A DNA stretch of 20,000 nucleotides from an uncultured virus (IMG/VR IMGVR_UViG_2061766007_003022) (IMGVR_UViG_2061766007_003022); one strand, 5' to 3'; numbered from the stretch's first letter, positions 1-20,000 are shown. The notes: generated by a model from the letters alone, not told the origin. Made by a program: numbers and translations.

Positions 1-1302
1 GCCAATGTCATCCGGTATATTCTCCGGGTCATCAACCAGCCCAGTCAGCATATCAGGATGGTCAACGAGTGCACCAATCATCTTGAACTTGGAAAATCCC
101 TCGTTATTGCCTTTGGCAAATTTCGGGTCAATTGTCTTCCGGAACCAAGTAACCGCAGGAGACTTGTCAGTGTTACTAATCATTGCGGCAAGTGCAGTGG
201 ACTGCGGGTTTTCCGCACCCATTTCATTGAGCTGATTGACCGCATTGGTTTCACCCCATTCATTCATGTTTACGGCTAAGTTCTTCGTCGCATACTGTCT
301 GAAATTAGTGAGCTTTTCGAGAACACTATTGTACTTGTCGCGGTTTTCGGGAGGTTGCGCATCACGCAACGCACTAATCGCCATGTTAGCATACTTGGGG
401 CTCATTGCCACCATCGCAGCCATCTGACCCATGCTGCTTTCATGCGACACCTTAATCTTCTTTGCAACCTGCTTTACGACATCATTATCGTAAGAATCCC
501 CATAGAACTGGTTAAGTTCATTAATGACCTCCACCACGTCCGGGTTGGTATTCAGGAAGTCAATCAGCTTCTTGGTAAATGCATAGATGGACTTGGTCGA
601 GCCGGTACGGTCAACGACAATGCTGCTGTTGGAAGTGATTGCGTTGATGAACCAATGCTCGAGAATCTGCAGACGTCTCCATGCGTTATCCCGTTCTTCC
701 GGGGTATTTCCACCAGCAGTTTCCGGGGTATATCCGAAGAGCATATTCCAGTTAATCGCACGGTTAAGCTTCGCCGCATCGGCAGCAATTACCGGGTCCG
801 TACTCTGTAGTGCCGGATTGAGCTTGTTCTGACAGGTCAAACTCTCGTTATTGTCAATATCCTCGGACATCTTGTCGGCGTCAGCCATGAATTTCTCTAC
901 CGACTTGGCCGATGAGGCGTCATCCTCGGCCTCACCGCGGCGCTGTCCGACCAGCGAAGTGACAATAGGACCAGTCCTAAGGTCCTCTAGTATGTCTACA
1001 AAATTCTTGTTGGGCCTGGTACCATCCCCGACATATGCTCGGATAAGCTCGAGGTCATTCGCAATGCGGTTGCTTTCGCCCGTTTCGTCGTTAACGCGGT
1101 TCACCAGATTTGCCGCTTCCGGGTCACGCATCACCTCGGGATGCACGAAAGCCATCAAAAGTGCAACGTTACGCGGCAACCTACGGGCATTATACGCACT
1201 TGCGATGGTTTTCATCATGTTATAGGCATCATTGAACTTTCTAAGAATTCGTTCAACATCATATCCGGTCAACCCGTCGCCCTGCTCCAGCATAATATCC
1301 AT
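1..1302 (-). CDS. Hypothetical protein, >434 aa, truncated by the window edge (MDIMLEQGDGLTGYDVERILRKFNDAYN...DDPENIPDDIG)
   Basis: Manually translated frame is open from ATG 1302 to position 1 (missing from the ORF track because it has no stop). AGGGG RBS-like element upstream and TATAAACT box 33 nt upstream. Confidence 0.85.
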   Translation of the reverse strand, partial: MDIMLEQGDGLTGYDVERILRKFNDAYNMMKTIASAYNARRLPRNVALLMAFVHPEVMRDPEAANLVNRVNDETGESNRIANDLELIRAYVGDGTRPNKNFVDILEDLRTGPIVTSLVGQRRGEAEDDASSAKSVEKFMADADKMSEDIDNNESLTCQNKLNPALQSTDPVIAADAAKLNRAINWNMLFGYTPETAGGNTPEERDNAWRRLQILEHWFINAITSNSSIVVDRTGSTKSIYAFTKKLIDFLNTNPDVVEVINELNQFYGDSYDNDVVKQVAKKIKVSHESSMGQMAAMVAMSPKYANMAISALRDAQPPENRDKYNSVLEKLTNFRQYATKNLAVNMNEWGETNAVNQLNEMGAENPQSTALAAMISNTDKSPAVTWFRKTIDPKFAKGNNEGFSKFKMIGALVDHPDMLTGLVDDPENIPDDIG

Positions 1303-1335
1303 CTGGTACCCCTACTAGGTGTATGTTTTGTCGCA

Positions 1336-1343
1336 AGTTTATA
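1336..1343 (-). promoter_or_regulatory. Putative phage promoter box TATAAACT
   Basis: AGTTTATA on + strand, 33 nt upstream of ATG 1302; same motif precedes six other starts. Confidence 0.7.
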
Positions 1344-1354
1344 TCCGTCCGGGC

Positions 1355-1371
1355 TTTTTTTCGGAAAAAAA
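1355..1371. repeat. Inverted repeat TTTTTTTC-G-GAAAAAAA between two divergent promoter boxes
   Basis: Perfect 8-bp arms with a 1-nt spacer, seen directly. Confidence 0.55.
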
Positions 1372-1373
1372 CT

Positions 1374-1381
1374 CATAAACT
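1374..1381 (+). promoter_or_regulatory. Putative phage promoter box CATAAACT
   Basis: 22 nt upstream of ATG 1404; matches nATAAACT. Confidence 0.6.
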
Positions 1382-1403
1382 GCGGTCATAACGGGGTATC
1401 GAC

Positions 1404-3087
1404 ATGAAGTTCGTACAAGATGTAATAAAACTGGCGATGGCCAAGGGGAAGCCCGGCATAGACTCGCTAACCAAACTTGAGCTGCTGGTTGCCCTTGCTG
1501 CAGCGTCCGAAACCAACCTGGCAAGATATAGTGGAGCCATCTTCGACCTCGTTACAATGTCGAAGCAGCCGGCATTTACCGGTCCGCTCGCCAATCCAGC
1601 CACGGCGGATAGGGTATGGAACACCATAGATACTATTCCAGAAGACCCGAAATACTATGCGGGGCAAAACTTTGCTAAACTGGTCGACATACTAAACAAC
1701 AGCGCCGTAGGCCTTATCAACCGGGTAATCAGGAAGCCGGCCTTGGGTGACGCCACGGGCGCATCAAGCGGTCTCAAGCCTGAATTCGGCGGGGAAATCC
1801 CGATAAGCAGCACCCATCCGATAAAGCAGGACTTCATGCCCCTGCTGGCACAAGTCACCGAATTCATGTGTCTAGAGATTCTGTCTCAGCAACAACAGCA
1901 GCAGCAACAGCANNNNNNNNNNNNNNNNNNNNNNNNNNNNNNNNNNNNNNNNNNNNNNNNNNNNNNNNNNNNNNNNNNNNNNNNNNNNNNNNNNNNNNNN
2001 NNNNNNNNNNNNNNNNNNNNNNNNNNNNNNNNNNNNNNNNNNNNNNNNNNNNNNNNNNNNNNNNNNNNNNNNNNNNNNNNNNNNNNNNNNNNNNNNNNNN
2101 NNNNNNNNNNNNNNNNNNNNNNNNNNNNNNNNNNNNNNNNNNNNNNNNNNNNNNATCGCCACTCCCCCTCCCCTCCTCGTTGACCCCACCGACGGACTCC
2201 CGGACGGTACTAGGGCCGCCCTGAAGGGCATGTGTGTGAGCGATGCCCAGCTCCAGGAGGCAATGGACTACCTCAACAATACCCCCGGCAACCTCTTCGC
2301 ATCTTACTTAGTGACATACCACCCGGTACTGACCGAGCGGGCCATCGCCAACCTCCTGGACGGACATACCACCGAAGGTACGCACAAGCACTACATGCCC
2401 AAGCCTCAGGTAAACAAGGTCATGATACCCCCGGCCTTCAAGATGGACCAGTCCCCTGCCATATGGAGCCGCGCTGTAATCACCTCACTCGGCTACCCTT
2501 TCATCAACTTCACCTGCCCGTCCGTCCTAGAACTCCTCCGTGGCACCGACCCGGCCAGGATTCGTGACGCCTACAAGCGTGTGAAGAAGATGTTCAAGCA
2601 GTGCGGCCTGAAGAAGCCCGTGGCGACCCTGCAGGAGTTCGCCCACGCGTCATACCGCAACTGCACGTTGAACGCCCTGGTCGTCGACGCGAACGAACTG
2701 TACAGCGCCGGAGCGGAGACCACCGTCACCGCACAGGTAGTGGAGCCCTACAGCAAGAACCTGACCACCAAGGGCAGTCTGGCAGTCCCCGTCAGCTTCC
2801 TCACCACGTTCTACGGAGTGCTCTCCCCGGTAGCCGCCGCGAACCAGTACGCCGCGCTATCCGGAAAGACCATCGACGAGTACAGGAACGACCTGGCCGC
2901 CACCGGGATGCCCCCGGTATACATCCTGAACCCACGGAAGGTACCGTTCCGCAGGGGCCCGAAGGGGAGCCTGTTCCACCGCCTGTTCAGCAACAAGGTG
3001 GCGCCGGTACTCGTCCGGGCGAAGGTCAGCACACACGACGGCGGATTCCTCATCCCCGAAAAGGACGCCGACAAGCTCCTCACATAG
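1404..3087 (+). CDS. Hypothetical protein (~560 aa) with a poly-Gln/Pro-rich linker spanning N-gap 1913-2154
   Basis: The ORF from ATG 1404 (GGGG RBS) enters the gap in poly-Q. The frame of ORF 2230-3087 is open right back to the gap edge (2155: IATPPPLLVDPTDGLPDGTRAALKGM...). Probably one gene with an inexact gap length; two genes cannot be excluded. Confidence 0.65.
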
Positions 3088-3108
3088 TAAGAATACATGG
3101 AATATCAT

Positions 3109-3139
3109 GGAGGCCACCGGGAAGCACCCGGTGGCTTCC
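3109..3139 (+). terminator. GC-rich hairpin after gene 1404-3087 (GGAGGCCACCGGG-aagca-CCCGGTGGCTTCC)
   Basis: 13-bp stem with one G-U pair, 21 nt after the stop and just before the next promoter box. It has no good U-tail, so it may instead be a processing or stability hairpin. Confidence 0.55.
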
Positions 3140-3141
3140 GG

Positions 3142-3176: not shown

Positions 3177-5235
3177 ATGTCCTATATCTGGGAAAAACCA
3201 AATCTCGGCAATAACCTCTACGAAATGGCATTCAACCAGCGCAAGGCCCTGCTGGAAGCAGATGCCGATAAAAAAGACGACGCTACTGCAGGTACCGGTA
3301 CTGCTGGAGAAGGTGCCGATGCAAGTGCCGGTGCGGGTGCTGGAGAAGGCGCTGGAGCTGGTGCTGGAGAAGGTGCAGGTGCGGGTGCGGGAGAAGGTAC
3401 TGGAGAAGGTGCCGGTGCGGGTGCTGAAGGCGGCACCGGTGGTGAAGAAGGGTCTGGCACTGGAGGCGGCACAGATGGTGAAGACTCAGCACTTGGCGGC
3501 CACATGGAATTAGATGAGGAAGGTACTCGACAACTTGCCGAGGAAGAGAAGGCTGCAAAAGAGGCCGAAAAAGCAAAGTCGGCCGAAGGCAAGAAAGAAT
3601 TCGCTGCAGAAATCCTTGATTCTATGAGTTATCCGGACCCAATCAAGGAAAAACTGGGCCAGTTTGTCAACAACATAATCGAAGGGAACGATTTTAACGG
3701 AGAAACGCCTAAGTCAGAAGAACGTGCTGCGTTCATAACGAAATTCAACAACGCATTGGCTAAAGAAAATAAAGAGTTCTTTGCCGCTTTCCTGAAAAAA
3801 TATGGTGACACACTGAATGAAAGAATGTTCGGCGATGTACTCAAGGAAATCAAGAAAGTCAACTGCGACGACGAATTGAAGAAGAAGATTTATTTGGCCA
3901 TCGCGAACCTCTATAGCGGCAAATGGTGCGACGGTACCCCCCTTGGCGAGGTTTCCGACCAAATCAAAGGCATTTCCCAGAGAGCGATAGCCAGGTTGCA
4001 ATCCAAGCAAAGCGACCAGATTGGTGCACAGGTGACCGCTCTAGCGCAGAACATATCCAACGGACGAATCCAGGTCGACAGCGGAAGCGATTCCAAGGAC
4101 AACATCAAGGTCGACGATAAGAACGAGGGTCTCTACCGCAAGGAGGCCCAGTCCGAGAAGGTGAAGGGCAGCATCGAGATGCCGGCACTGTTCGAGTCCG
4201 AGCCGGACGACTCCATGTGGCAGGACATCGTGGTGACCGCATTCGGCATCCCGATGATTAACATGGGCAACCCGGTATCCAAGAAGGTCCTCTCTTCCGA
4301 AAACCCCGAGGAGGAGTGCCCGGGCGACCTCAAGCAGTTCAAGAAGGCCGTCTACAGCGACCCGCGCCTCCAGAACGTGTTCGGCAAGGGCGGTTTCGAG
4401 CGGGTCATTGCAGGAAAGCTCATCAACCTCCTGACTCTCGGCGTTGCCGCCGCCACCACTGATGCCGGCAAGCGTGCCGACCGTATCATCAAGGAACTCA
4501 AGGAGAAGGGCGGCATGACCACCCACCGCAACCTCCTCATGGTCAACTACGAGGACATCATCGACGTCGACCCGGACAACGAGGAAATCACCGTGACCGC
4601 CAAGGCATACAACCGCTCCCGCGGAGACTTTGTCGGAGAAATCGAGGTTCCCGCCGTCATGCTGGCCGAGTTCTACAGTGCGGTCGACCCAATCAAGAGC
4701 CCGAAAATCTACATGGAGATGTACAACAAGGACGACGTCATGAAGGAGAAGCTGGAAAACGCCGGTGCCGAAGCAGATGCAGCAGGCGCAGGTGAAGGAG
4801 AAGGCTCCGCCGACGCTAAGGAAGACCCGAGCAAGATGAAGGACTTCGACAAGCTGGAAAGCAGGCACGCCGTTCCCGGACGCCCGATGTACGAGTCCTT
4901 CGCACTGGCTGGGNNNNNNNNNNNNNNNNNNNNNNNNNNNNNNNNNNNNNGGCGACAACGAGGACAGCAACAAGGTGTCCAAGATAAAGAAGAACGACGG
5001 AAGCGAGTTCGCCAAGATGAAGGAGAACTACATCAAGATGCTCTCCGCCGAAGGACACCCGCCGGCATACGTCCTCAAGCCGAAGAGCGCCAACAAGGAA
5101 GTCGTCGTCGTTTCCAAGAGCAGCACCGGCCAGTTCCAGAAGGGCAAGGTCCTCATGGTCACGATGAAAATCGGCGACAACCAGGCCGCAGCGTTCATGA
5201 CCCCAAAGGAGTGCAAGCAGTACTTCGCACTGTAG
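3177..5235 (+). CDS. Large acidic hypothetical protein (~685 aa) with a Gly/Ala/Glu low-complexity tract; candidate virion-internal protein
   Basis: Open from ATG 3177 to gap 4914-4950. After the gap the codon-biased frame is GDNEDSNKVSKIKK...KQYFAL* ending at TAG 5235, not the R/Q-rich frame given in the ORF track. Confidence 0.8.
3282..3485 (+). repeat. Degenerate tandem coding repeat (GAGAGEGA)n
   Basis: Repeating GGTGC(G/T)GG.../GGAGAAGG units encoding AGTGTAGEGADASAGAGAGEGAGAGAGEGAGAGAGEGTGEG... Confidence 0.85.
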
Positions 5236-5239: not shown

Positions 5240-6265
5240 ATGAGGCTGGATACCTTCATAAGAAACAGCAAGGCCATGCTGGAGAACAACATGGCCTTCT
5301 TCTCGAAGAGGACGGACGGCGGACGCAAGCTCCGGGCAAAGGAGCTTACCCGCCGATTCATCAAGGTATCCCGGAACCCCCAGGGACAGGCAGTCACCGA
5401 ATGGAAAGTCCCCTCGGCATCCGAACCAGGCAAGGAATACGACTGCTACATCTCGGTCGAACCCAAGCAGGGGACACTCTTCACAATCGCCCATTCCAAG
5501 GGGAACCTCAAGACCCGCGTGCAGCTAATCAAGGACGCCGACGTCCGCTGCTTCTGTACCTGCCCGGACTTCAACTGGAGTGGCATGAAGTACAACATGA
5601 AGCACCGCTTCGACGGGTACGAGGACGGCCACACGTCCGTGGACGGAGTGCCGGACGGCTCGGACATCAGGCCAAAAGTAAGGGACCCGAAGGGAAGGCG
5701 CACGGTATGCAAGCACCTGCTCAACTGCTTCACCGGCATGCTGACATCGGCGCAGATTATCATGAAGGCCGCACGCACGGCCAAGTTCCCTCAGGAATAC
5801 ACCAAGGAGCCAGAGGACATCCAGGTTCTCAACCGGGAATCCGACAAGGAAGCCACACCCGGCGAGATTAAACCCATGAACGGAGGCCAGAAGAAGGACT
5901 CGACCAGCGGGGAAATCAAGGCGAACAACACCGGTACCGACAAGAAGCCACTGGCAGACTACCCCAAGGAGGAAGAGGCCATAAAGGTCCTCGGCGAGTC
6001 AGCCCCGGTCAAGCTCCCGGAGGCCCAGGCGGCCCTCGACGCGCTCGCCGGTACTCTCGGGGAGCCGGACGCTGGTGTACAGGAGGACTCCGGGGAGATT
6101 ACAGCAATAGGACAGGGAGACTCCGGGGAGGCACCGGGAGGTGAAGAAATTTCAATGTTCAACGGGGATTCCTCGCCCGACCTGTCCGACCCGCTCACCG
6201 GGATAGAGGACGCCTCGAAGCTGCCAATGTTCAACCCGGACGACGAAGACGAGGAAAATACATAG
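5240..6265 (+). CDS. SWIM-type zinc-finger protein with an acidic, disordered C-terminus
   Basis: 341-aa ORF. DVRCFCTCPDF...RDPKGRRTVCKHL fits the SWIM CxC-xn-CxH signature. Starts 4 nt after the upstream stop. Confidence 0.8.
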   Translation: MRLDTFIRNSKAMLENNMAFFSKRTDGGRKLRAKELTRRFIKVSRNPQGQAVTEWKVPSASEPGKEYDCYISVEPKQGTLFTIAHSKGNLKTRVQLIKDADVRCFCTCPDFNWSGMKYNMKHRFDGYEDGHTSVDGVPDGSDIRPKVRDPKGRRTVCKHLLNCFTGMLTSAQIIMKAARTAKFPQEYTKEPEDIQVLNRESDKEATPGEIKPMNGGQKKDSTSGEIKANNTGTDKKPLADYPKEEEAIKVLGESAPVKLPEAQAALDALAGTLGEPDAGVQEDSGEITAIGQGDSGEAPGGEEISMFNGDSSPDLSDPLTGIEDASKLPMFNPDDEDEENT

Positions 6266-6291: not shown

Positions 6292-6966
6292 ATGGCAATT
6301 ATCGTTGTAGGCTCGACCAAGAACATGTTCCCCGAGATGGACGAGGGGAGAGAGAAATTCCTCATAGACGTTCCCCACAAGGGGGAGAACATCGACCGTC
6401 TTAACCCGTGGTACTGCGAGCTCACCGGCCTCTACTACCTGTGGAAGAACTCGTCGGCCTACTATGTCGGGCTGGAGCACTACCGGAGGTTCTTCGCTTC
6501 AATCAAACGGGAAAAATCCAGGATGGACATAGCCGAGGCCCAGGATATCCTGAATGAGCATGACATGATTGTCACCGAATACTTCCACGGTCCAAAGTAT
6601 ACCGCGCTCGACTGGTTCAAGGACTCCAAGTACATCTACCATCTCGACAAGTTCGTCGACGTGCTCAGTGACGAGGACAAGTCGGGCTTCAAGGAATACA
6701 TTACCAGGCACTCGCTCATCCAGTGCAACATGTTCATCGGGAAGCGACCGGTAATGGACCGGTGGTGCCGGTTCATATTCGAGTTGCTTTCCAAATACGA
6801 CGCACACTGGGCTCCCAGCGAGAAGAACCGGCGCATGGACGGGTACTTCGCCGAGCACATCTTCGGCTACTGGCTGGAAAAGGAAAGGGTGCCCATATTC
6901 AAGGCACCCAAGGTGGAAATCGACTATGTAGTCAGGGGCGGCATCGTCCCGGTACACAAGGCCTAG
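6292..6966 (+). CDS. DUF4422-family protein (putative glycosyltransferase, WbbM N-terminal/GT111-like)
   Basis: GENIDRLNPWYCELTGLYYLWKN...YVGLEHYRRFF, CNMFI and RMDGYFAEHIFGYW match DUF4422 motifs (GDNISxxNxxYCELTxxYWxWKN, GLxHYRR, NMFI, RxxGFxxER). AAGGA RBS. Confidence 0.85.
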   Translation: MAIIVVGSTKNMFPEMDEGREKFLIDVPHKGENIDRLNPWYCELTGLYYLWKNSSAYYVGLEHYRRFFASIKREKSRMDIAEAQDILNEHDMIVTEYFHGPKYTALDWFKDSKYIYHLDKFVDVLSDEDKSGFKEYITRHSLIQCNMFIGKRPVMDRWCRFIFELLSKYDAHWAPSEKNRRMDGYFAEHIFGYWLEKERVPIFKAPKVEIDYVVRGGIVPVHKA

Positions 6967-8351
6967 TGGGCGGAGTGTACCAGCTTGATGGCAAGCGCGT
7001 CATCCGGGCTGAACAGTCTGTCATTGTCGGCAATGAACTTGATTTCATTGTCAACTACAACATACCGGCCGGCCACGTTTCCATTCGCATCGCCATACCA
7101 TCCGCAGCATTTAGTCCTGTAGAGCGGAGCCATTTTACCCTGCTTTCCGGTAGGGGAGAATCCGATACCGAGCCGCTGGATGTTTTCGGGAGTCCCAAGA
7201 TTCTTGAGTTCAGACATCGTAGGAAGACGCCAACCGCTTTCCCTTATAGAATCGATATACTGCTGAGCCTGCGTCATATTAAACACGGTGACGCCGGCCG
7301 ATGATTTAGTGACATCATTGGCACTTGCATAACCCTTCATCCACCACAGGCCATTGGCCGCGCTGTACGAAATGTTACCGAGCGCACCCTCGCTTACCTT
7401 ACCGGTATGCCGAGCAATCACGTCACGGTTAGCAAACAGTTTTTTCCTGATGGATTCAGCCTTATCCCTAGGCATCTTTTCAAGAAGGTTATTGATGAGA
7501 ACACGGTGCCCTTCAATGAAACTCGACGCAAACTTTGACCACCCGGATATATCCGAAAGTTCCAGCAATAGCATTACGCCATCTTCCGTAGTGGCCAGCG
7601 ACTCCACATATTCCGGAGTAAAGTACTTTTCACAGAGAGCGTTAATGTTTCGTCCATTTCCGGACAATGCAACTATATTAAACAAGGCAATAGACGGCCT
7701 TGCAGCAAACAGGGCTGCCAGTTCGGCATCGCTGACTACCTCGCCTACATCATCCTGGTTCCCAGTCACTTTCCTATAATATTTATCTACATTGAATAAC
7801 CGTGGAACTATCCTATTCAATGCAATGTCATGATAAGCTTCTATGCAGTTTCCAAGGATGTTCTTTCCGGTAACCAGTACAGAAACAAATTTCGCCCACA
7901 CATCAGCCAGTTTTTCCTCATACGCGATTGATAGCATCAAGACCAGTCCAATTTGGAAGTCAAGTGTATCTCCATCCAGTATTCCACCCGGTTCAAGGTA
8001 TAATTTAGTTGCCAATTCAGTATATCCAGCATCATACAGGTCCATTGCACTATACATGACGAAATCTGTCATTTTGGACCCGTCTGTAAGTACACCATGT
8101 GACCAATCGGCAATATTCTCAGCAAGGGTCTCGCGGACAAGACTAATTTGCGGAGACATATATTGCTCGATAAACACAGCCAAGTCTTTAATGTCATCTT
8201 CGTTGGCCCTAGCTATTCCCTCGTGAAGCATTATGGCAGACAGGGGACGACTGAATAACACTACATTGATGAGGTCTTTTATTCGTTTCCCCATGGGAGA
8301 TTCCGGCTTGGTCTTATTAACTTCAGTCAGAATATCGGGAGAAGTAGCCAT
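6963..8351 (-). CDS. Hypothetical protein (462 aa) with a C-terminal FISUMP (Fib_succ_major)/C-type-lectin-like domain
   Basis: Long ORF. The last ~135 aa carry WWM...F.M..A...GWRLPTMSELKNL...GFSPTG...WY...AIKLV, the motif order of FISUMP/DUF1566 domains. The start is next to gap 8361-8392, so it could extend upstream. Confidence 0.7.
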   Translation of the reverse strand: MATSPDILTEVNKTKPESPMGKRIKDLINVVLFSRPLSAIMLHEGIARANEDDIKDLAVFIEQYMSPQISLVRETLAENIADWSHGVLTDGSKMTDFVMYSAMDLYDAGYTELATKLYLEPGGILDGDTLDFQIGLVLMLSIAYEEKLADVWAKFVSVLVTGKNILGNCIEAYHDIALNRIVPRLFNVDKYYRKVTGNQDDVGEVVSDAELAALFAARPSIALFNIVALSGNGRNINALCEKYFTPEYVESLATTEDGVMLLLELSDISGWSKFASSFIEGHRVLINNLLEKMPRDKAESIRKKLFANRDVIARHTGKVSEGALGNISYSAANGLWWMKGYASANDVTKSSAGVTVFNMTQAQQYIDSIRESGWRLPTMSELKNLGTPENIQRLGIGFSPTGKQGKMAPLYRTKCCGWYGDANGNVAGRYVVVDNEIKFIADNDRLFSPDDALAIKLVHSAH

Positions 8352-8392
8352 AATGGCAAGNNNNNNNNNNNNNNNNNNNNNNNNNNNNNNNN

Positions 8393-10221: not shown

Positions 10222-10229
10222 TATAAACT
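10222..10229 (+). promoter_or_regulatory. Putative phage promoter box TATAAACT
   Basis: 29 nt upstream of ATG 10259 with a GAGG RBS; divergent partner of the 10160 box. Confidence 0.7.
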
Positions 10230-10258
10230 CCCATTGTCAGACAATAGAGGGTTTCCGA

Positions 10259-11392: not shown

Positions 11393-14300
11393 TATGACTC
11401 CATTATTTGAAGCGCAGGACGACTTTAAGGCTATAGAGGATTCTATATCCTCTAAGTTCAATATTCCTCCAAACGCTAATGTAGCTGTATCCGACCTAGA
11501 AGAAAACCATCCATCAAAAAAACTCCAGCAGGTAAAAGACGCCATAAAAGCAGAGGCGAAAGTCGAAATGGCTGACCCGGGGCCGGTACTTGAACTATTG
11601 GATAGAATCGAGCAATTCAAGCGGGAGCCAAGCAATAATCGACTGAACCAAGACGTAATTGACGGTATCGAAGCATCCCCGGCAGAAATAAGGGATTTGC
11701 TGCATTCCGCTGTAGATGTTATTACTGCAGAAGCTAGAGCAGCATTGGGTGGAGAGGTAACCATAGAAAATCCGGAAGCACAGCTTAGTGAAATCCGTGA
11801 GTTAATTCTAGGAACCGCAGACCGTCTCGGCCTTGACCCAAAAGTATTCGAGCAACTTTTACTGCGAATAGCGAAAAATAAGAAAACCGCAGCAAACAAT
11901 CGTTTGGATGAAGTTACGCTCAACCGCATCAACTATCTCCCCAAACCCATGATAAAGCTTATTCAAACCGGTGCCGATATCATAGATACCATGATTGATA
12001 ACTTCTGGGCGGCTAAGCATATAGTCGAACACCCCGGTCAAAACGATTACGCCAACCCGGACATCGAACCTACATTCAATCTATATAATGCACCGATAGC
12101 AATCCCGCTTTCTGAGTATATAAGAATAAGAGCCACCGAACAGATGACATTCCCACAAAATTCGGGAATCGGAAACTCCAAGACTGCACAAGAGAACATT
12201 AAGGCAGGAACTCCAGCAAAGCTAACACCAGAAGAATTGAACAATCTGTTGAACAACGGGGTTGACCTGGCACACCCCGAGCAGTTACCGGAAGATATAC
12301 GAAACTACATCGCCCTGCTATCCAGGAAGTTCCTACCGGGAATCTTCCGGATTGGGTTTGATGATTTGGGTCTCATGGGCTATCTATATAACACCAAGGA
12401 TACTATTCAAGGGGCACTAGATAAGATGGGAATCCCCGTAAATAGTGGATATAGCCAAGAAAAAATGGATTATTTCGGTAAGAAAGTAATTCCTGCTCTG
12501 ATACTACGCTCCATGTTGTCACAGTATGAGCCTACTGACGGATATAAGAAAAGTGACTTTGTGAAAGGGGAGAAATTCCTTGGTAATGACGTTGCAAACG
12601 CATTAAGGGATTATATCGACCCATTAGATGTTCAACTCAACTCCGACTTGGATGGTCTTGACTACGATGGTCTAATCGACCTGGCCGATACAGGCGATAT
12701 TGATTCGACGAACCTCTTAGCATCATCAACCCATGACGAACACGGAAATCAGTTTACCTATATACCAGATGACAACGATGAGCCAGTTGCCGATAATACA
12801 CAACTTACGGTAACCGATAAAGATGCGGAATATGAATGTCCAGCATATAAGAGTGGCGATTGGTATGTAGTATATATTAAAGACAAAGAGCATTCTGAGA
12901 AAGGATGGTTCAGTTTTCCCGAGCCGTCCAGTATAAGAAAAGATGGAATTTTCATGTTGAACGGTACCGGGCAGGATGAATATGGGAGAACTCATGGAAG
13001 TGTAGGCGATGCATGGTGTATTGTCCATTCCGGTTCATTCAATGGATATGGTCCGGGTTCCTATGGGGAATACAAACCATATGCATACTACTTGGTTCAT
13101 AAAGATGCACTGTCGCCTGATGTACTTAAACACGACAGGAATGACTCCAAATATTATATGACAACAATGGGATTATTCTTTGCAGGCTGCGACCATAACG
13201 ATGCCAAGGAATATACTATTTTCACTGATGGACATATGATGAGCCGGGCAAACTGGTATATATTCAATCATGGTGAGTTCGAGGATAAATATGCCCCCTT
13301 AGCTCCCAAAAACCTACCAAATGCATCAAACCGGGCAAACTGGTGTTTCATTAGGACTATTTTTGCATTGAACACCATCGGTAAATGGGATAACACCATA
13401 ACCGGTGAAGAAAATATAAAGACAGCTGCCCAGGAACTTAGTAAGTCCTGGTTCCCACCGTTTGGCGGCAAGATAGAAGTCAAGCAAAAAGGTATCCCAA
13501 GCGTACATGTAAAGGACCCGGGGTCTGCAGCCATACTTTTTAATGGAAAGTCTCCGGAACACCAGGCGGTCACCCGCAGCATAATGGATGGCAACACCCT
13601 GCTCAACATAGACGGAACGGAATACAAGATGCATATGAACTTAGGTGACCGGGTGGACTTCGCCAAGCTAGGGACGCCAGAAGATGCAAACACTATTACT
13701 ACTCCAATGATATCGTTCAGGCTAGATAAAAGTAATAACAAGTGGCATGCGATAAATTCCATCCCGATGGACTATCCCAAGCGCAAGCGAATTGAGGACG
13801 ACTACAACGAAGTTCCGGAGCTCGACGATTCATTCAAGCCGGAGAATCCGGTAGACGGTATACGCTGGTGCTTCCCGGCATCTGGTAAGTCAGCATCTCA
13901 CCGTGTAGGATTCTCCGCCGACCACACAATCTACCTATCAGACGGGACCGACGTGTTCGAAGCTGGAAAGAACAGGGCAAATCCGGAGATATTCAACGGT
14001 TGCAAGTGTACCTACGTGGATACGCCAAACGGGAAAAACATATTCGTCATGGCGTCACGCCTGCACAGCACGTCTCCGATACGGATGGTGGGATATGTAC
14101 GCAACGGCAAAGTCAACTTCTTCCATGTTTACCTCATGATGCAATCCGGAATCGCCCTACTGCAGGATGCGATATCGGGCAAATACCGTGTCGGCGACCT
14201 CATGGGAGACCCGAAACCGATGAACCGGGACGAATACACGGGGGCGATTGCCGTGGACGGCGCAGGAAACTACGTCGATACCATTGGCCTGACCCCTGAT

Positions 14301-14510
14301 GCAATAGAAAACATGCTATACAACAGGAATTCCCAGATAGGCCTGGCCATACAGAACGGACGCATGGGAGAAGGCGATGACCCAACCCTGGTAGGGATAA
14401 TACAGTGGGTATCCGGTGAAGACATGTCAGACATCCAAGAAGAGACACGGATTACCATGAACGATATCCGCAAGGACGGCGCAAAACCGCCCTTCTTTGG
14501 TGAACGCTAA
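11373..14510 (+). CDS. Large hypothetical protein (~1045 aa), extended paralogue of 10259-11392
   Basis: Start chosen at ATG 11373 (GGAGG 7 nt upstream; alternative 11394). KFLPGIFRI, LNSDLDGLDYDGLI and WYVVYIKD..AWCI..YYLV..SRANW parallel KYMPGITRI, FDVNYNGMTLDDIM and YRIVKIN..PWCI..YFCL..TRWN in the upstream gene. Confidence 0.85.
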   Translation: MLAANSNMTPLFEAQDDFKAIEDSISSKFNIPPNANVAVSDLEENHPSKKLQQVKDAIKAEAKVEMADPGPVLELLDRIEQFKREPSNNRLNQDVIDGIEASPAEIRDLLHSAVDVITAEARAALGGEVTIENPEAQLSEIRELILGTADRLGLDPKVFEQLLLRIAKNKKTAANNRLDEVTLNRINYLPKPMIKLIQTGADIIDTMIDNFWAAKHIVEHPGQNDYANPDIEPTFNLYNAPIAIPLSEYIRIRATEQMTFPQNSGIGNSKTAQENIKAGTPAKLTPEELNNLLNNGVDLAHPEQLPEDIRNYIALLSRKFLPGIFRIGFDDLGLMGYLYNTKDTIQGALDKMGIPVNSGYSQEKMDYFGKKVIPALILRSMLSQYEPTDGYKKSDFVKGEKFLGNDVANALRDYIDPLDVQLNSDLDGLDYDGLIDLADTGDIDSTNLLASSTHDEHGNQFTYIPDDNDEPVADNTQLTVTDKDAEYECPAYKSGDWYVVYIKDKEHSEKGWFSFPEPSSIRKDGIFMLNGTGQDEYGRTHGSVGDAWCIVHSGSFNGYGPGSYGEYKPYAYYLVHKDALSPDVLKHDRNDSKYYMTTMGLFFAGCDHNDAKEYTIFTDGHMMSRANWYIFNHGEFEDKYAPLAPKNLPNASNRANWCFIRTIFALNTIGKWDNTITGEENIKTAAQELSKSWFPPFGGKIEVKQKGIPSVHVKDPGSAAILFNGKSPEHQAVTRSIMDGNTLLNIDGTEYKMHMNLGDRVDFAKLGTPEDANTITTPMISFRLDKSNNKWHAINSIPMDYPKRKRIEDDYNEVPELDDSFKPENPVDGIRWCFPASGKSASHRVGFSADHTIYLSDGTDVFEAGKNRANPEIFNGCKCTYVDTPNGKNIFVMASRLHSTSPIRMVGYVRNGKVNFFHVYLMMQSGIALLQDAISGKYRVGDLMGDPKPMNRDEYTGAIAVDGAGNYVDTIGLTPDAIENMLYNRNSQIGLAIQNGRMGEGDDPTLVGIIQWVSGEDMSDIQEETRITMNDIRKDGAKPPFFGER

Positions 14511-14517
14511 AAAACAC

Positions 14518-14538
14518 AAGGGCGGTCATCCCGCCCTT
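14518..14538. terminator. Probable bidirectional intrinsic terminator between convergent genes
   Basis: AAGGGCGG-tcatc-CCGCCCTT lies in the 31-nt gap between stops at 14510 and 14542, A-rich on the left and T-rich on the right. Confidence 0.75.
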
Positions 14539-14541
14539 TCG

Positions 14542-15289
14542 TTATCCCTCGGTAACCTCGATTTTCACCGGTTCTCCCCCGGCATCTCCCGGTTTCTTCC
14601 GTCCACACATCCGGTTGAACACGTCCATGTCGACGTCGCGCATGACGTCCTCCATCGACATGACTTCGATGTTGTCCCCCTCGATGGCAACACCGGATGC
14701 ATCGGCGACAGCACCGGCATACCCGTCCAGGTAAACTGCGTTCGAGGTCTCATCATACCCGGTCAGCAGGTCCTCGGACATGCCCATCAGGTCGGCTACG
14801 CACCGGTACTTCTCCGGTTCCTTCACCCCGTTCATCTCGAGAATCTCGCGGTCCTTGCTGTCGAGCGGACGCTGCAGGTTGAACGGGTCCTTCTCCAGAA
14901 TCTCGGCAAGCGCCTTGGCCTTGCGGTCGGCCTGGGTGTCCTCCTCCATCATCATGTCATAGACTTCTGGAGCGAACTTTTGCAGGACCTCTCCGTTGCT
15001 CGGCGCATGTCCGTCGAACAGTTCAAGGAACTTCGGGTACTTGCGGAGGAAGCCAATCTTCTCCTCGCCCGATACGGGGTCGGTGTACCAGAACACAATC
15101 TTCGACATGTACTCGACAAGGCGACTCATGCAGATACCNNNNNNNNNNNNNNNNNNNNNNNNNNNNNNNNNNNNNNNNNNNNNNNNNNNNNNNNNNNNNN
15201 NNNNNNNNNNNNNNNNNNNNNNNNNNNNNNNNCTCCTCGAAGGCCTCCATGGCCTCGTCCATCGTATTGTCATCAATTCCAGCCATCAT
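14542..15289 (-). CDS. Acidic hypothetical protein (~250 aa) spanning N-gap 15139-15232
   Basis: MMAGIDDNTMDEAMEAFEE-(gap)-GICMSRLVEYMSKIVFW...KIEVTEG*. AGGAGG RBS before ATG 15289/15286; the frame offset coincides with the gap. Confidence 0.75.
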
Positions 15290-15330
15290 GGCCTCCTGTC
15301 CTTTTCCACAGAAACTATTACAAAACAGAA

Positions 15331-15355
15331 AGGCTCCCGGGGTTTCCGGGAGCCT
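15331..15355 (-). terminator. Intrinsic terminator of gene 15379-17406
   Basis: Perfect 10-bp stem AGGCTCCCGG-aaacc-CCGGGAGCCT followed by TTCTGTTTT on the minus strand. Confidence 0.8.
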
Positions 15356-15378
15356 GGTTCAAAACATGGCAGTATGTT

Positions 15379-17406
15379 CTAGCGGCCGAAGAACTTCCTG
15401 TTTCCCGGCTGCNNNNNNNNNNNNNNNNNNNNNNNNNNNNNNNNNNNNNNNNNNNNNGTCAGCCAGCGCGTCGTAGTCGACCGCGGGTTCGCGGAAGTCG
15501 TTGCCGACATTCACGTCGGTACTCGCCGGAGCGGCTGGCTTATGGGAGAAGTCCAGCTCGGTGGGATATTCCTCATTTGGAATGCCCTTCAATCCGTTGT
15601 CGGCATCGAAGTCGTCGCTCAGGCCGATGCCCTCGAAGAGGCCATCCTCGTCGAGACCGTTGATGCTGTCGACCATTCCGCCCGGGCGTGGGAGGAACTC
15701 TTCCGGGTCGCCGCCGATTACCTTCTCGAGGTAGGACGGCATCATGCGGCCACGGTTCCTGCTGAGCACCACGTATCCCCGCTCCCTGGCAATCACGGCA
15801 ATGAGCGATTGGCCATATCCGCGGTCATCCGGATAGAGGTTGTCGAAGTTCGGGGTATAGCAGAAGTATACGTTAGTAGGTTCAGCGTTGACCAACTGGT
15901 CCCACGCATTCTCGTCCTGGATGAAGAACCACGGGTTGCCGTCAGCGAAGTACCTGGCAAACTCCTGGGCGGTCTGGAAGTCCGGGATGGTCTCCACGGT
16001 GCAGTTTCCGGCCCAGCGGGTCTTCTCGAGGGAGGAAGGCTCATCGTCGTTGAAGTTGAACTCGGACTCGTCATACTTCGGCTCATCCTCGTACCCATGG
16101 TCATTACCGTAGATGTCGTGGTCAAACTCCAGCTCACCGTAGTCGTCGGAGGAATCCATGTATCCACTGCCCTCGGTCAGGGAACGACCGCGGCGCTTTC
16201 CCGGAATACGGTTCGCACTGGATGTGAGCGGGAACCGCATGGGCCCCGGTCCCGATTCATTGCCACCGGCAGCCCTGCGTAACTTCCTCGGGTTATGCTC
16301 GCCGGTCGGCTTGCAGGCCTTTCCGACCCACGTGCGCTTGAACTCACTCTCCTCAATATCGTCAAGTTGGTGTCCGTCACGCAGGCTAACGTCCAGGTAG
16401 CCGTCCGGCAATGCGCATACCGCCATCAACGACCTCGGATAGGCATCGTCTTCCGGCTGCACGTCGGCGAACCCCTCGGTATAGCACATGTAGATGGTGC
16501 CACGCCTGCTGTACTCGTTCCACAGCCTCTCGTCATTGCATATAGCGACAGTACCGTGGAAGTACTGGTCGAAGCTGCTGGCCGTCCTGAAGTCGTGGAT
16601 GCGCTCGACACGGTACTTGCCGCGCCAGATGCGGTCATACTCGTCCGGTTCCACCTCGTGGAAGCCCTGGTTCATGATAATCTCGCCACCGGCGTCGTCG
16701 TCATAGTCGTCCAGCTCGGACTCGGGGTCGCCGAACATGCCGGTACCGTCCAGCTCGCTGCTGAAGTCAAGGTCCATCGGGTTTCCCCTACGGTCATACG
16801 GGTTCTCGGGGAACTTGCGGGACTCGGTCATCTTCTGCCCGCAGCATTCCTCTTCGGCATCGCCGGAATTGGGCTTGTCGTCATCGTCGTCATCGTCCCC
16901 GTCCTTCTCTTTGTCGCACGGGACGCACTCGCCGTCGACCTTGCACTCGCCTTCCGGGCACTCATCATCCTCTTCGGCCTCGGCCTCGCCGTCGTCGTCA
17001 TCGTCAGCCTCGGCATCGTCCTCGTAGGCANNNNNNNNNNNNNNNNNNNNCGCATGGCCGCCTTGAGGGCGTCCTGTGCACCGCCTACGTCGCCGCCGTT
17101 GATTTTCTCGTCGAGCGCGGTACAGACATTGCCGAGGAACTCCTGCTCGTCCTGGTCGAGATGGGGGAGGAATGCCCCGACAAGGCCCTGGAAGGCCTTC
17201 TCGAAATCACCCATGGAGAGCCCTGCCTCGGTAAGGGGCTTCTTCTTGCTGCCCTTGGGAACGATTCGTCCCTCGGCAACGGCGAACTTGTACTTGAAAG
17301 TGTCGATGATGGCATCGTTGGAGCCGTCCTTGAGCGACTCGCAGAAAGCCATGTATTTCTTGAATCCCCGGTCGTCCAGGGTGCGGCGTACCTTGATGCC
17401 TGCCAT
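15379..17406 (-). CDS. Very acidic multidomain protein (~670 aa) with two degenerate PcfJ-like repeats; spans two N-gaps
   Basis: Starts MAGIKVRR at ATG 17406 (GAGG RBS, box 32 nt upstream). After gap 17031-17050 the frame AYEDDAEADDDD...EECCGQKMTESRKF is continuous with ORF 16831. After gap 15413-15457 it most plausibly ends QPGNRKFFGR* at 15379, just before the terminator. Confidence 0.75.
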
Positions 17407-17438
17407 ATTTTCAACCTCGCGGTAGTTCTTTGCAGGCA

Positions 17439-17452
17439 AGTTTATCGGTTTA
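17439..17452 (-). promoter_or_regulatory. Promoter box TAAACCGATAAACT
   Basis: Identical to the 14-mer at 10160-10173; lies 2 nt after the upstream stop and 32 nt before ATG 17406. Confidence 0.75.
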
Positions 17453-17454
17453 CG

Positions 17455-18981
17455 CTAGAAAATTCCCGGAATATTCCCCGGGCCGCGTCCTGTCATCTCC
17501 TCCAGGACCTCCCGCTCGAACTCCATCTCGGCCCCGGTCATGAACACCTGGCCGCGCTCCTCCTCGGTCATCGTGGGCACCCCGGCATCGTCCAGTTCGG
17601 AATCCATCAGCGCCTTCACCCGGTCCCCGTACTCCGAGGGGACTATGACCGAGTCGTGCACCGTGCAGAACGGGCACCCGACCTCCCGCATGACCCTGGG
17701 TATCACCTTTCCGAACACGAAGTCGCTCTCCACGAACTGCATGGCCCTCGCCAGGGCGGCGTAGTCCGACTTCTTCAGGTGCTCGATGACGCCGAGGAGA
17801 ACCGGGAAGTCCCTCTCCCACACCCTCCTGACGGCTGCCCTCAGGCTCCCCCGGTCCCTGTCCTCGAGGACGGGCCCGAACAGGAACAGGAAGAAGCCGT
17901 GCTTGGCCTCCTTCCGGTCCGGCTTCCCGTCATAGAGCGGGTCCTCCGAAATCCTCCCGGAGAAGTGCTCGTACAGTCGTCCTCCCCGGAGCAGCCCGTT
18001 GTACCTCCCGCACTCGTCATCGTACCTCGCGCGGTCGACCACGGGCATGCCGAGCGCGAGCTCGCGTATCACGGTGTGCCTGCCAGAGTCGAGTATCGAG
18101 GACGGGTCCCCCAGCGAGCGCAGAATCTTCCCCAGGAAGGCACCCTGGCTGGACTTGATGTCCACCGACACCGTAGGCTTCCCGTCGCAGTAGAGGCACT
18201 CGGTCCTGACCTCCTTCTTCAGCTGGGTGACGTTCGTGTGGATTCGGCCGAACCGGTCCTTCTTGACGAACAGCGCGCAAGGGTCGGTCGAGTACGACAT
18301 GAACCGCTCCACCTTGTCGAGCTCGCGCCTCCTCTGCCCGTCCTTGATTTCGCCGGACTCGACGAGCGAGTCAAGCACGTCGCGGGCCTGCTTCCGGTCA
18401 ATCTCGAAGTGCTCCAGCTGCCGGTGGCACTCGGACACCATCGGGTCCTTCAGCTGCCTGGACTTCACGTCCTCCGCGCACTTCTGCAGGCGCTTCAGGA
18501 AGGTGCGCGACTTGACCTCGAAGGTCCTCGTCCTGCCGACGTGCCGCTTCCGGTGGGTGTCCGGGTCGGCGACCGCGTCCTCCCGGCTCCAGCAGTACTC
18601 GCGCCACTTGACGGCGTACCCGTACTGGAACCAGAACGCCTTGCTCACACCCGGGGTATGGTCGTCCCCCACGAGGTAGGACCGGCTCCTCCGGATGAAA
18701 CCCCAGTTCTCCAGGTCCTCCAGGACGCCCACGTAGTGCGCCCCGATGGCCATGTGGAGGTATACGGAGTGGAGGTTGCAGTGCCAGGTCTTCACGTCGA
18801 CCTTGCGTCCCACCGAGCGCTCGTCCCGGTACTTCCGGCGTAGCTGCCGGGCGACCAGGTGCAGCACGAAGAGGTACAGCTCCTTCCTCCGGGCGCACCC
18901 GGGATGGAACCGGAGCATCTGCTCCAGGGGGGCCACCATGGCCTCCGGTACCTTCATCGTGTAGTTGAACTTCGGCTTCAT
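17455..18981 (-). CDS. Divergent family-A (PolA/T7-superfamily) polymerase-like protein with an N-terminal winged-helix-like region and no exonuclease domain (508 aa)
   Basis: Ordered motifs GRIHTN (cf. GRLSS), VSVDIKSSQ (motif A Asp), RKEAKHGFFLFLFG (motif B RxxAKxxxFxxxYG), MQFVESD (cf. IQGSAAD) and TVHDS (motif C). Start moved to MKPKF at 18981 (GGGG RBS, GATAAACT 38 nt upstream) rather than 19098. Confidence 0.7.
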   Translation of the reverse strand: MKPKFNYTMKVPEAMVAPLEQMLRFHPGCARRKELYLFVLHLVARQLRRKYRDERSVGRKVDVKTWHCNLHSVYLHMAIGAHYVGVLEDLENWGFIRRSRSYLVGDDHTPGVSKAFWFQYGYAVKWREYCWSREDAVADPDTHRKRHVGRTRTFEVKSRTFLKRLQKCAEDVKSRQLKDPMVSECHRQLEHFEIDRKQARDVLDSLVESGEIKDGQRRRELDKVERFMSYSTDPCALFVKKDRFGRIHTNVTQLKKEVRTECLYCDGKPTVSVDIKSSQGAFLGKILRSLGDPSSILDSGRHTVIRELALGMPVVDRARYDDECGRYNGLLRGGRLYEHFSGRISEDPLYDGKPDRKEAKHGFFLFLFGPVLEDRDRGSLRAAVRRVWERDFPVLLGVIEHLKKSDYAALARAMQFVESDFVFGKVIPRVMREVGCPFCTVHDSVIVPSEYGDRVKALMDSELDDAGVPTMTEEERGQVFMTGAEMEFEREVLEEMTGRGPGNIPGIF

Positions 18982-19019
18982 CGCCCCAACGATAATCAAA
19001 AAACTTCCGAGCGTCAACC

Positions 19020-19027
19020 AGTTTATC
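19020..19027 (-). promoter_or_regulatory. Putative phage promoter box GATAAACT
   Basis: 38 nt upstream of ATG 18981. Confidence 0.55.
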
Positions 19028-19069
19028 CTGGAAATTTTCCTGTATATACCGTTTTTTTCTTCGGAGAGG

Positions 19070-19298
19070 ACCGGTACCGACCGGCCTACGCGCTCCATTG
19101 ATATGTTTACAGTTTTGATTCTCCTTGCTGTCCTGTCCCAGGCAGCTGCTGGGTTCTTCCCGGTTTCCTCCCGGGTTCTCCGGGTGAGGTCCCGGTATCC
19201 GACAGGTTTACATAATGTTCCTTATGTAAAATTCCGTTTACGTGTATTTTTTCTTTGTGACAACCGGTACATGCCGGCCCTACGCCTTCCATTGATAT
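19070..19298. repeat. Two imperfect 35/36-bp direct repeats (19070-19104, 19263-19298) enclosing inverted repeats; origin-like region
   Basis: ACCGGTACcgaCCGGCC-TACGCgcTCCATTGATAT vs ACCGGTACatgCCGGCCcTACGCctTCCATTGATAT (30/36 identical); inverted repeat TTTACATAA-6-TTATGTAAA at 19207-19230; GTTTAC three times. Confidence 0.75.
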
Positions 19299-19344
19299 CT
19301 TTCCAGATTTCTTCCGGAAACGGCCGGAAAATCAACGGTTTCCC

Positions 19345-19372
19345 TTGCCGGTACATTCCTTTTTGCTATATT
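19345..19372 (+). promoter_or_regulatory. Sigma70-like (host-type/early) promoter TTGCCG-16-TATATT with extended -10 TG
   Basis: -35 at 19345-19350 and TGcTATATT ending 19372, 9 nt before ATG 19382. A similar TTTTGnnATAnTT precedes gene 14542-15289 on the minus strand. Confidence 0.55.
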
Positions 19373-19381
19373 TCATGGCAT

Positions 19382-19822
19382 ATGGACATGAATGAACTCA
19401 GATACGCCAGGTCGGCGCTCGTTTCCGTCTGTCCCGCGAGGGATGTCGCGGCAGGAGTCCGTTCCGGTTCCGCCGAGTACGTCCTCGTCCCCGTCAGGGG
19501 CGAAGCTGTAGTCGACATCGAGACCAGGACGGAGCCGGAGCTGGAGGACGGGGTCGCCCCGTCGTTCACCGTTGAGCTCCGGGAGGCGGTCAGGCGCTAC
19601 GTGCTGAAGTGCGCAAGGCAGACATACATGATGAGGCGCGGCACCTCGATGTTCAACGAGACGGGGGACTACTACTCCCCGAACCACACGTACAGGCTCG
19701 TCGTATGGGTCGAGCAGCCGGAGTCCGGCGGCATGAAGTTCTACTTCCTCCCGCTCCGGGAGATTCCGCAGGATGCTACCGGTATCGACCGGGAGATGCC
19801 GGAAGGGGCAGTTGCGGTCTAG
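19382..19822 (+). CDS. Hypothetical protein (146 aa, MDMNELRYARSAL...)
   Basis: GC3-biased codons begin at ATG 19382/19388. The upstream extension in the ORF track (from 18965) crosses the repeat-rich non-coding region. Confidence 0.75.
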   Translation: MDMNELRYARSALVSVCPARDVAAGVRSGSAEYVLVPVRGEAVVDIETRTEPELEDGVAPSFTVELREAVRRYVLKCARQTYMMRRGTSMFNETGDYYSPNHTYRLVVWVEQPESGGMKFYFLPLREIPQDATGIDREMPEGAVAV

Positions 19823-19824
19823 CG

Positions 19825-20000
19825 ATGATTGACGAGCAGCTCAAGTGCACCGTGGTCTTCGACGACGTGGATGGGGTCCTGTCGAAGATGTACGTCACCG
19901 GGGAGAACCCGGAGGCGGTAAGGGGCATATTGCGCTCGGTCGCGTCCGTGCTCACCTACTACGACAAGAGCAAGAAGTTCACGTGGGCGGTGAAGCACGG
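19825..20000 (+). CDS. Hypothetical protein, truncated by the window edge (MIDEQLKCTVVFDDVDGVLSKMYVTGENPEAV...)
   Basis: ATG 2 nt after the previous stop; open, codon-biased frame to the window end. Confidence 0.7.
   Translation, partial: MIDEQLKCTVVFDDVDGVLSKMYVTGENPEAVRGILRSVASVLTYYDKSKKFTWAVKH

Follow-up and report, generated by a model that had tools for sequence, protein, structure and literature searches.

Excess and helical phasing of CCGG sites in an uncultured phage and its near relatives

Background

Selected helical periodicity of dinucleotides has been described, also in some large lytic phages, and a partner has been postulated for it (PMC7537859), while periodicity of DNA curvature is reported to be generally absent in phages (PMC3431218). 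The HIP1 motif of cyanobacteria, 8 bp long, is reported to be over-represented 15-300x and to have a 10-90 kb period (PMC5861425). Avoidance of GATC by phages is well described (PMC6286503), and a bendability consensus has been published, TTTCCGGAAA, that is centred on CCGG (PMC3691935), as are the forms CGGAAATTTCCG and AAATTTCCGG (PMC3117857). Here we describe a stretch of 20,000 nucleotides from an uncultured virus (IMG/VR IMGVR_UViG_2061766007_003022), called the window from here on, in which the tetramer CCGG is in excess and recurs at the distance of one helical turn. A phage would be expected to lose palindromes of 4 bp and to have no helical periodicity; in this one a palindrome has been gained and is phased at one turn inside genes. 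Searches of the open-access literature found no description of phased CCGG, of CCGG over-representation in a phage, of methylation in Fibrobacter (the probable host genus), of Fibrobacter jumbo phages or of A-tract periodicity in jumbo phages that fits this pattern.

Abundance of CCGG

The phage of the window is known from these 20,000 nucleotides, and the genome-scale tests were made on sequences of its relatives, mainly the incomplete records G001 (160,790 bp) and G002 (259,974 bp), the locus L052 and the phages G005, G006 and G011, the last two distant. The window (1-20000) contains 211 CCGG sites, against 88.6 expected from mononucleotide composition, 110.5 from a first-order and 168.1 from a maximal-order Markov model (z 5.0), the last placing CCGG third among 136 words; the other palindromes GGCC, CGCG and GCGC occur 92, 53 and 62 times. 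Contigs of public runs cover the window, and four long pieces from the possible source run match it with no differing letter, so its letters are not an assembly artefact. Close relatives are found in three other public runs, one of them labelled bovine gut metagenome. Six runs of N (470 bases) lie at low-complexity stretches (1913-2154, 4914-4950, 8361-8392, 15139-15232, 15413-15457 and 17031-17050); several open reading frames are broken there, and the contigs show single-base insertions at 4912, 8360 and 17030.

The initial annotation of the window had singled out an AT-rich gene (8393-10129), counting 14 CCGG against 3 GGCC, 3 CGCG and 1 GCGC, with three to four CCGG expected. Our counts are identical, and base composition gives 3.6. 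The gene, of no recognised family, extends over 8327-10129 on the minus strand and includes the N run at 8361-8392. A synonymous shuffle raises the expectation to 9.7 (P = 0.027), and most of the four-fold excess is carried by the choice of codons and amino acids. The same is seen over the 13 called genes of the window, where 175 CCGG compare with 83 expected from mononucleotides, 113 from a codon-order shuffle and 138 from a synonymous shuffle (z 5.1; first of 136 words by z, third by ratio). Codon and amino-acid usage carries about 60% of the coding excess (about 55 of 92 sites, from 83 to 138 of 175), and this usage may itself have been shaped by a CCGG signal.

The annotation had allowed that codon usage or a bias of the host might lie behind the enrichment. 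The excess survives the synonymous shuffle at 1.27x in the window, 1.20 in L052, 1.19 in G001 and 1.17 in G002, and at 1.19, 1.16 and 1.05 in G005, G006 and G011. All three reading frames exceed expectation in the window and two do so in L052, G001 and G002, frame 0 (Pro CCG followed by G) having no excess in these three relatives. Outside called genes CCGG reaches 3-3.6x (36 vs 11.8 in the window, 37 vs 10.5 in L052, 138 vs 38.7 in G001). Fibrobacter is not enriched, with synonymous-shuffle ratios of 0.84 and 0.98 in two host stretches (host range 0.83-0.99) and depletion against the Markov expectation in its loci (3367 vs 4208). In a distant sister clade CCGG has been all but eliminated. The abundance of CCGG is real, modest, not derived from the host and common to much of the phage family.

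Helical spacing of CCGG

The spacing of CCGG is a stronger signal than its abundance and had escaped the initial annotation. Pairs of CCGG with starts 9-12 bp apart number 32 in the window against 9.9 expected (P 2e-8; 33 pairs at 9-13 bp), and 17 against 6.9 persist when the last 1.5 kb is removed. They are flanked by troughs, with 9 pairs against 29.6 at 4-8 and 13-19 bp (P 1e-5), and followed by a second peak of 23 pairs at 20-24 bp. Linked by steps of 9-12 bp, the sites form 17 chains of two, six of three and one of four. The smoothed spacing curve pooled from six near sequences stands at 2.7 at 10-11 bp, 0.7 at 14-15, 1.5 at 21-22, 0.75 at 27-29, 1.05 at 33 and 1.2 at 42-43, decaying within three to four turns. 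Among 136 words CCGG ranks first in the near set for self-pairs at 10 or 11 bp (147 vs 46.7), and it is outside the top 12 in distant phages and in the host.

The phasing is present in coding DNA considered alone, at the out-of-frame distances 10 and 11, with 13 pairs vs 3.3 in the window (ratio 3.9), 19 vs 4.7 in L052 (4.1) and 57 vs 22.9 in G001 (2.5). The ratio is 1.29 in G002, 0.63 in G005, 1.29 in G006 and 0.94 in G011, and 0.88 and 0.82 in the host; three of the seven phage sequences are significant. Synonymous shuffles keep such pairs at 2.2-2.3x the background in the window and L052 and at 1.4x in G001, compared with 0.8-1.0x in six others, and since the phasing partly survives only in the near lineage the pattern is imprinted on the proteins there. 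Near-matches with a single mismatch are also enriched in phase, at all four positions (1.14-1.32) and most clearly as CTGG (1.72) and CCGA (1.49), an enrichment absent in distant phages. Masking CCGG halves the helical periodicity of CC. In G001 the phasing is seen at all distances from the candidate origin described below and is not confined to it. Individual sites turn over, only 11-44% of CCGG being kept between orthologues; at unchanged amino acids retention is above controls in most frames, in small numbers.

Several simpler patterns were rejected. Spacers between paired CCGG are unrelated (145 of 155 are distinct), which rules out a dispersed repeat as the source of phasing; even spacing is ruled out by a coefficient of variation of the gaps of about 1.1, and an extended motif with A two bases past CCGG by a frequency of 0.36 compared with 0.27-0.31 in controls. 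Polar motifs such as Chi and KOPS have a strand bias that switches at the origin. CCGG does not match this bias, CCGGG and CCCGG numbering 53 and 58 in the window, 449 and 408 in G001 and 516 and 495 in G002, with no clear switch at the origin. An apparent avoidance of 10/11-bp pairs by the host (4 vs 18.6 in 26 homologous loci) was gone in 400 kb of non-redundant host DNA (0.82-0.88).

Among individual arrays, a run inside a gene at 14568-14614 has steps of 11, 10 and 22 bp and no hairpin, and chains of three sites lie at 6748-6771 (steps 11 and 9, within the DUF4422 gene 6292-6966) and at 19779-19802 (steps 10 and 10, at the end of gene 19382-19822). An intergenic inverted repeat at 3109-3141 has a CCGG pair as its arms and a third CCGG 10 bp on, and a terminator-like hairpin on the minus strand at 15331-15355 is built on a CCGG-N5-CCGG pair; CCGG is present in both arms of each, as had been annotated (3109-3139 and 15331-15355). 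Intergenic A-tracts are also phased at 10-11 bp, with a contrast of 1.3-2.0 in G001, G002, G005, G006 and G011 and of 3.2-3.4, from small counts, in the window and L052.

A possible reader of the phased sites

The explanation that we tentatively favour, at somewhat less than an even chance, is that CCGG is under weak genome-wide selection because a protein with an architectural role prefers it when cooperatively binding or wrapping double-stranded DNA on one helical face. Selection would act at the level of DNA in this lineage of T4-like rumen jumbo phages, and the reader would occupy two to four CCGG at once (20-35 bp). It would serve to organise, coat or compact the DNA of the phage, either in the cell or in the head, and its array would be densest at the origin. 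A single palindrome phased over a short range, together with graded near-matches, fits cooperative binding on one face, from what is generally known of arrays of DNA-binding sites. A binding partner has also been inferred for periodic motifs generally (PMC7537859). The initial annotation had proposed that a phage selects CCGG as a modification site, a self-mark or a protein-loading site; the identification as a phage stands and the phasing fits protein loading, while the other branch found no support. A bolder version, which we regard as doubtful, is a chromatin-like code recently evolved by this phage lineage, in which a phage protein of unrecognised fold would read CCGG once per turn, coat or wrap the genome in units of 20-35 bp and bend the choice of codons and amino acids, most densely at the origin beside a minimal family-A polymerase.

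Several observations weigh against such a reader. HU/IHF was found in one of 16 phage records, a distant one, and histone folds (two Pfam families) were found in none of 16 and none of 5 phage records, nor in any of 61 Fibrobacter genomes; the records are incomplete, and divergent folds would escape such searches. The lineage-restricted proteins are mostly acidic, a label that is provisional as the subtraction of distant from near proteomes used three full records plus loci. Because G002, G005 and G006 carry a residual excess (1.16-1.27x overall) with no significant coding phasing (27/20.9, 13/20.6 and 25/19.4), abundance and phasing may have different causes. Whole-sequence excesses at 10/11 bp occur in distant phages, mostly outside genes (38 vs 22.6 in G006, 24 vs 11.0 in G011), and the limit to one lineage is not strict, G002 having 50 pairs vs 28, largely intergenic, and two GATC-free loci (L058, L060) having no phasing. 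The effect is modest when protein and count are held fixed (35 of 72 vs 25 expected in the window, z 2.7), and the pooled sets include homologous regions and are not independent. Where the amino acid is unchanged, pairing hardly improves the retention of a site (23/30 paired vs 47/65 single; 5/17 vs 19/45; 47/75 vs 367/695). After the synonymous shuffle AATC, ATGC, GGAA and ACCG have similar or larger ratios, and CCGG ranks only 9-17 of 136 in the relatives. Atlas searches, protein 16828-17439 excepted, gave no lead to a host or reader. G002 encodes a basic Lys/Pro-rich protein of 74 amino acids (L143:970-1194), with a counterpart in G001 (73%) but none detected in the distant set, for which Pfam, NCBIfam and Atlas gave no match.

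Phased CCGG could also be favoured with no sequence-specific reader, if purines behind it, pyrimidines ahead and A/T between made the DNA easily bent or packed, for spooling, looping or opening of the origin. We consider this unlikely, though some observations support it. The published bendability consensus has CCGG at its centre (PMC3691935, PMC3117857), coding spacers follow RR..YY (R purine, Y pyrimidine) at 227 of 356 positions (0.64, vs 0.56 in the background and 0.44 in distant phages), and purines and A+T show a damped oscillation around CCGG in the near set only. A/T tracts are anti-phased on whole sequences (1.38 at 5, 0.78 at 12, 1.33 at 17 and 0.70 at 23), their phasing being strongest in near-lineage spacers. 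However, GGCC and other YYRR words are not phased (TCGA 1.0, TTAA 0.8, CCAA 1.0), and only CCGG (3.1), CTGG (1.7), CCGA (1.5) and TCAG (1.3) of the 16 exceed 1.2, which points to reading of specific bases. Moreover, the coding anti-phase of A-tracts after shuffling is 1.26 compared with 1.21 in the host, A-tract phasing is mainly intergenic and present in distant phages and the host too, phage genomes are reported to be generally free of curvature periodicity (PMC3431218), and close relatives with the same capsid have no coding signal. A neutral process, in which a CCGG-bound enzyme (Vsr-like or nick-directed) converts near-matches one turn away and regenerates sites of no benefit, would agree with the fast turnover of single sites and with enriched near-matches that are transition products (CTGG, CCGA). 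It is quite improbable: the in-phase near-matches are enriched rather than consumed, CCAG/CTGG is not depleted after the shuffle in the window, L052 and G001 (1.05-1.08; 0.80 in G002), the troughs at 4-8 and 13-19 bp fall below chance and such an enzyme was not found. We infer selection rather than mutation as the probable cause.

The remaining branch of the initial annotation, in which CCGG is modified or serves as a self-mark, appears improbable; an enzyme of phage or host would write the mark, and a two-site reader would favour pairs. The site is palindromic and non-polar as methylase sites are (CCGGG 53 vs CCCGG 58), the relatives encode glycosyltransferases, C5 methylases of putative specificity occur in four of five Fibrobacter genomes, and the near-lineage genomes lie mostly outside the available sequence. 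On the other hand, no C5 or N4/N6 methylase (PF00145, PF01555) was found in G001 or G002, both incomplete, nor TET/JBP in five records, where the positive control likewise gave no match. C5 methylases were found only among the more distant records, in three of 23, and these three have a low CCGG excess; among 101 Fibrobacter genomes neither the HpaII family nor MspI was found, the positive control for MspI being also unmatched. The inner C of CCGG shows no excess of C-to-T change, a third-position C in CCGG becoming T less often than at other CpG (0/17 vs 7%; 0.15 vs 0.26), a comparison confounded by selection, and modification alone does not predict a spacing of 10-11 bp. A CCGG pair is also an inverted repeat of the kind used by terminators, and hairpins in RNA or single strands explain why G006 and G011 have an excess on whole sequences. 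Between genes the pairs are often part of longer stems (10 of 21 in G001, 8 of 28 in G002), and both of the annotated hairpins are of this type. For coding pairs this reading is largely refuted, since their flanks are complementary at chance frequency (14/51, 30/105, 22/79), their excess persists when pairs with complementary flanks are left out (8 vs 1.7, 10 vs 2.6, 25 vs 12.3), distances of 7-8, which would give loops of 3-4 nt, show no enrichment and there is a second peak at 20-24 bp; as a general cause it has a very remote chance. Hardly more credible as the whole explanation, and refuted in that role, is a by-product of codons, amino acids or protein structure (Pro CCG before G, the 3.6-residue rhythm of the alpha-helix) or of inherited host bias. 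It stands as a partial explanation of the count: of the 92 sites by which the window's coding DNA exceeds base composition it covers about 55, CCG is the preferred Pro codon in phage and host, and frame 0 has no excess in three relatives. Against it as a whole are the residual z of about 5-10 after the synonymous shuffle, the 3-3.6x outside called genes, the strongest distances being out of frame, the lack of phasing in comparable proteins of the relatives and the host, and the host CCGG ratio of 0.83-0.99.

In the cooperative, one-face reading both the protein and its architectural role are suggested by the pattern of sites. The relatives span complete loss of CCGG, unphased excess and strong phasing, a gradient that makes the question of what reads periodic motifs testable, as it offers a single word and spacing, negative controls from nature and a short fragment of the origin. 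A protein that reads the sequence and wraps the DNA, if there is one, would give a large phage a new means of genome organisation.

The phage group and its probable host

G001 has 12 orthologues of window genes (46% mean identity) and encodes T4-like gp23, portal, prohead protease, terminase, gp32, a family-B polymerase and a sigma factor. It is a T4-like jumbo myophage, with a capsid about 30% identical to those of T4-like phages. The Pfam scans took in 113 of the 118 proteins of G001 and 9 small ones besides, and in G002 128 of the 211 larger proteins and 21 small ones. A transfer-messenger RNA (tmRNA) in G001 (L010:4426-4781), flanked by CCGG-pair hairpins, is 80-87% identical to that of Fibrobacter. 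With a 22-base tmRNA probe 51 of the 80 genome loci listed were Fibrobacter, all 51 outranking the others, and 48 of them give alignments of 265-360 bases with 80-87% identity. In G002 the region of thymidylate synthase has 74% DNA identity to Fibrobacter loci, in a comparison set rich in Fibrobacter. These relatives make Fibrobacter, a main cellulose degrader of the rumen, the probable host of the window's own phage, a host lead for a large undescribed group of phages. The relatives carry many tRNA-type genes (24 in G002, 54 in G006, 40 in G011), and G002 (L147-L154) has at least six TnpB/IS605-type genes, an FtsK-like gene, a CCA-adding enzyme and an NAD-dependent ligase.

GATC, which the initial annotation had overlooked, is absent from the window (0 vs 66.5, z -10.6) and from both G001 and G002. 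It stands at 0.3-0.5 of expectation in Fibrobacter, where the DpnII family was found in 3 and MutH/Sau3AI-type enzymes in 9 of 101 genomes, their specificity being inferred from the family; no phage-encoded nuclease of the DpnII or MutH families was found in five phage records. The absence of GATC is ordinary restriction avoidance. It co-occurs with CCGG phasing here and also with loss of CCGG in another clade, which gives no ground for linking GATC to phasing. G002 is also nearly devoid of ACGT, and other clades lack CCGG, CGCG or CATG.

A candidate replication origin and its neighbour

The intergenic spacer 18982-19381, probably a bidirectional replication origin, is the densest CCGG stretch of the window, with 11 sites in 300 bp; the equivalent in L052 has 16, and in G001 and G002 it is not the densest. 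In G001, G002, G006, G011 and L052 the cumulative GC-skew minimum coincides with the orthologous spacer or is no more than about 500 bp away from it, and four of the five long records agree, G005 having its minimum 25 kb away. The minimum is at 118,731 in G001, between repeat words at 118,688 and 118,784, at 91,372 in G002 (words at 91,802 and 91,901), at 33,086 in G006 (32,952 and 33,125) and at 154,212 in G011 (153,755). On the plus strand of the window the repeat has two copies, 19071-19112 and 19264-19306, each a CCGG-N6-CCGG followed by an iteron-like word, conserved in the clade at 19095-19112 and degenerate at 19289-19306. A chain of four CCGG (19160-19195; steps 11, 9 and 12) lies between them. 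The word also precedes the adjacent gene in most of the relatives that were inspected.

That gene (17455-18981, minus strand) encodes a minimal family-A polymerase-like protein of about 510 amino acids, a candidate primase or initiator, with invariant DIKSSQ, RxxxK and HD motifs; D313 and D482 are invariant in 20 sequences. It contains 28 CCGG, with clusters at 18826-18850 and 18889-18913, and is kept across the phage family beside the origin. Pfam and NCBIfam gave no match; fold comparison matched it best to POLRMT and family-A polymerases, with E values of 5.6e-4 to 1e-3 and low TM-scores. For the protein of 17455-19098 a search yielded 29 homologues, the longest of their contigs reaching about 430-465 kb, and 41 viral and 80 metagenome loci were retrieved with it. 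In size (400-600 amino acids), in having both catalytic aspartate motifs and in its matches to family-A and mitochondrial RNA polymerase folds it resembles the primase-polymerase TV-Pol, as that enzyme is reported (PMC2579912; bioRxiv 10.1101/2022.12.02.518924). Unlike TV-Pol it adjoins a candidate origin and is two genes from an SF2 helicase (ResIII/Helicase_C, G001) rather than a D5 helicase, in a phage with a separate family-B polymerase. Spacer and gene may form an origin-initiator pair.

Other genes and signals of the window

Only one of 12 window proteins (DUF4422, gene 6292-6966) was named above cut-off by Pfam, PHROGs and NCBIfam. Gene 10259-11392 has no match in cultured phages, and 2230-3087 retrieved no locus. 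The protein of 5240-6265 (plus strand) has a CxCxDF...CKH pattern with no library match, which we take to resemble a SWIM zinc finger. The block from 6963 to 17439 encodes large, acidic proteins that evolve fast and carry Leu/Phe-x-Glu words close to the N-terminus. They were not detected in the distant phages used for comparison, and one has a weak Lcl_C match; they are possibly protease-processed internal head proteins, as in T4. The word ATAAACT, which resembles a T4-type late promoter, lies just upstream of genes at 1375, 3143 and 10223 (plus strand) and 1336, 10160, 17439 and 19020 (minus strand), and upstream of genes 46 times in G001 and 56 in G002; AAATATAGYAA is a second recurring upstream word.

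Comparison with known systems

Restriction-site avoidance as described for phages (PMC6286503) explains the lack of GATC, and the sister clade has removed CCGG likewise; it predicts the loss of CCGG in our phages, not its gain. The comparison with HIP1 (PMC5861425), drawn in the initial annotation, is a loose one. Both are palindromes over-represented genome-wide, in all frames and between genes, with no polarity and with a proposed role in the nucleoid, but CCGG has 4 bp, an excess of 1.3-2.2x (2.2x over base composition, 1.27x over the synonymous shuffle) instead of 15-300x, a period of 10-11 bp and sites that seem poorly kept, and a linked methylase was not found in the incomplete G001 and G002. 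The nucleosome bendability decamer, YYYYYRRRRR or TTTCCGGAAA (PMC3691935, PMC3117857), shares the central CCGG in a repeat of 10-11 bp, with purines after and pyrimidines before; A/T between is clear on whole sequences, weak and much as in the host in coding DNA. It differs in that only CCGG and its near-matches are phased here and not the other YYRR words, that the base after CCGG in our pairs is more often G than A, and that a histone was not found in the phage fragments or the host sample. A further likeness is to the helical periodicity of prokaryotes and some large phages (PMC7537859; PMC3431218), with which our phages share a period of one turn, its presence in coding DNA, a lineage-specific motif, apparent selection and a postulated partner. 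Unlike those dinucleotides and A-tracts, which act over a long range, the signal here is a single palindromic tetramer, about three-fold at one turn, in a phage whose probable host does not have it. Helical periodicity of motifs was already known; in this phage both the excess of CCGG and its phasing are real.

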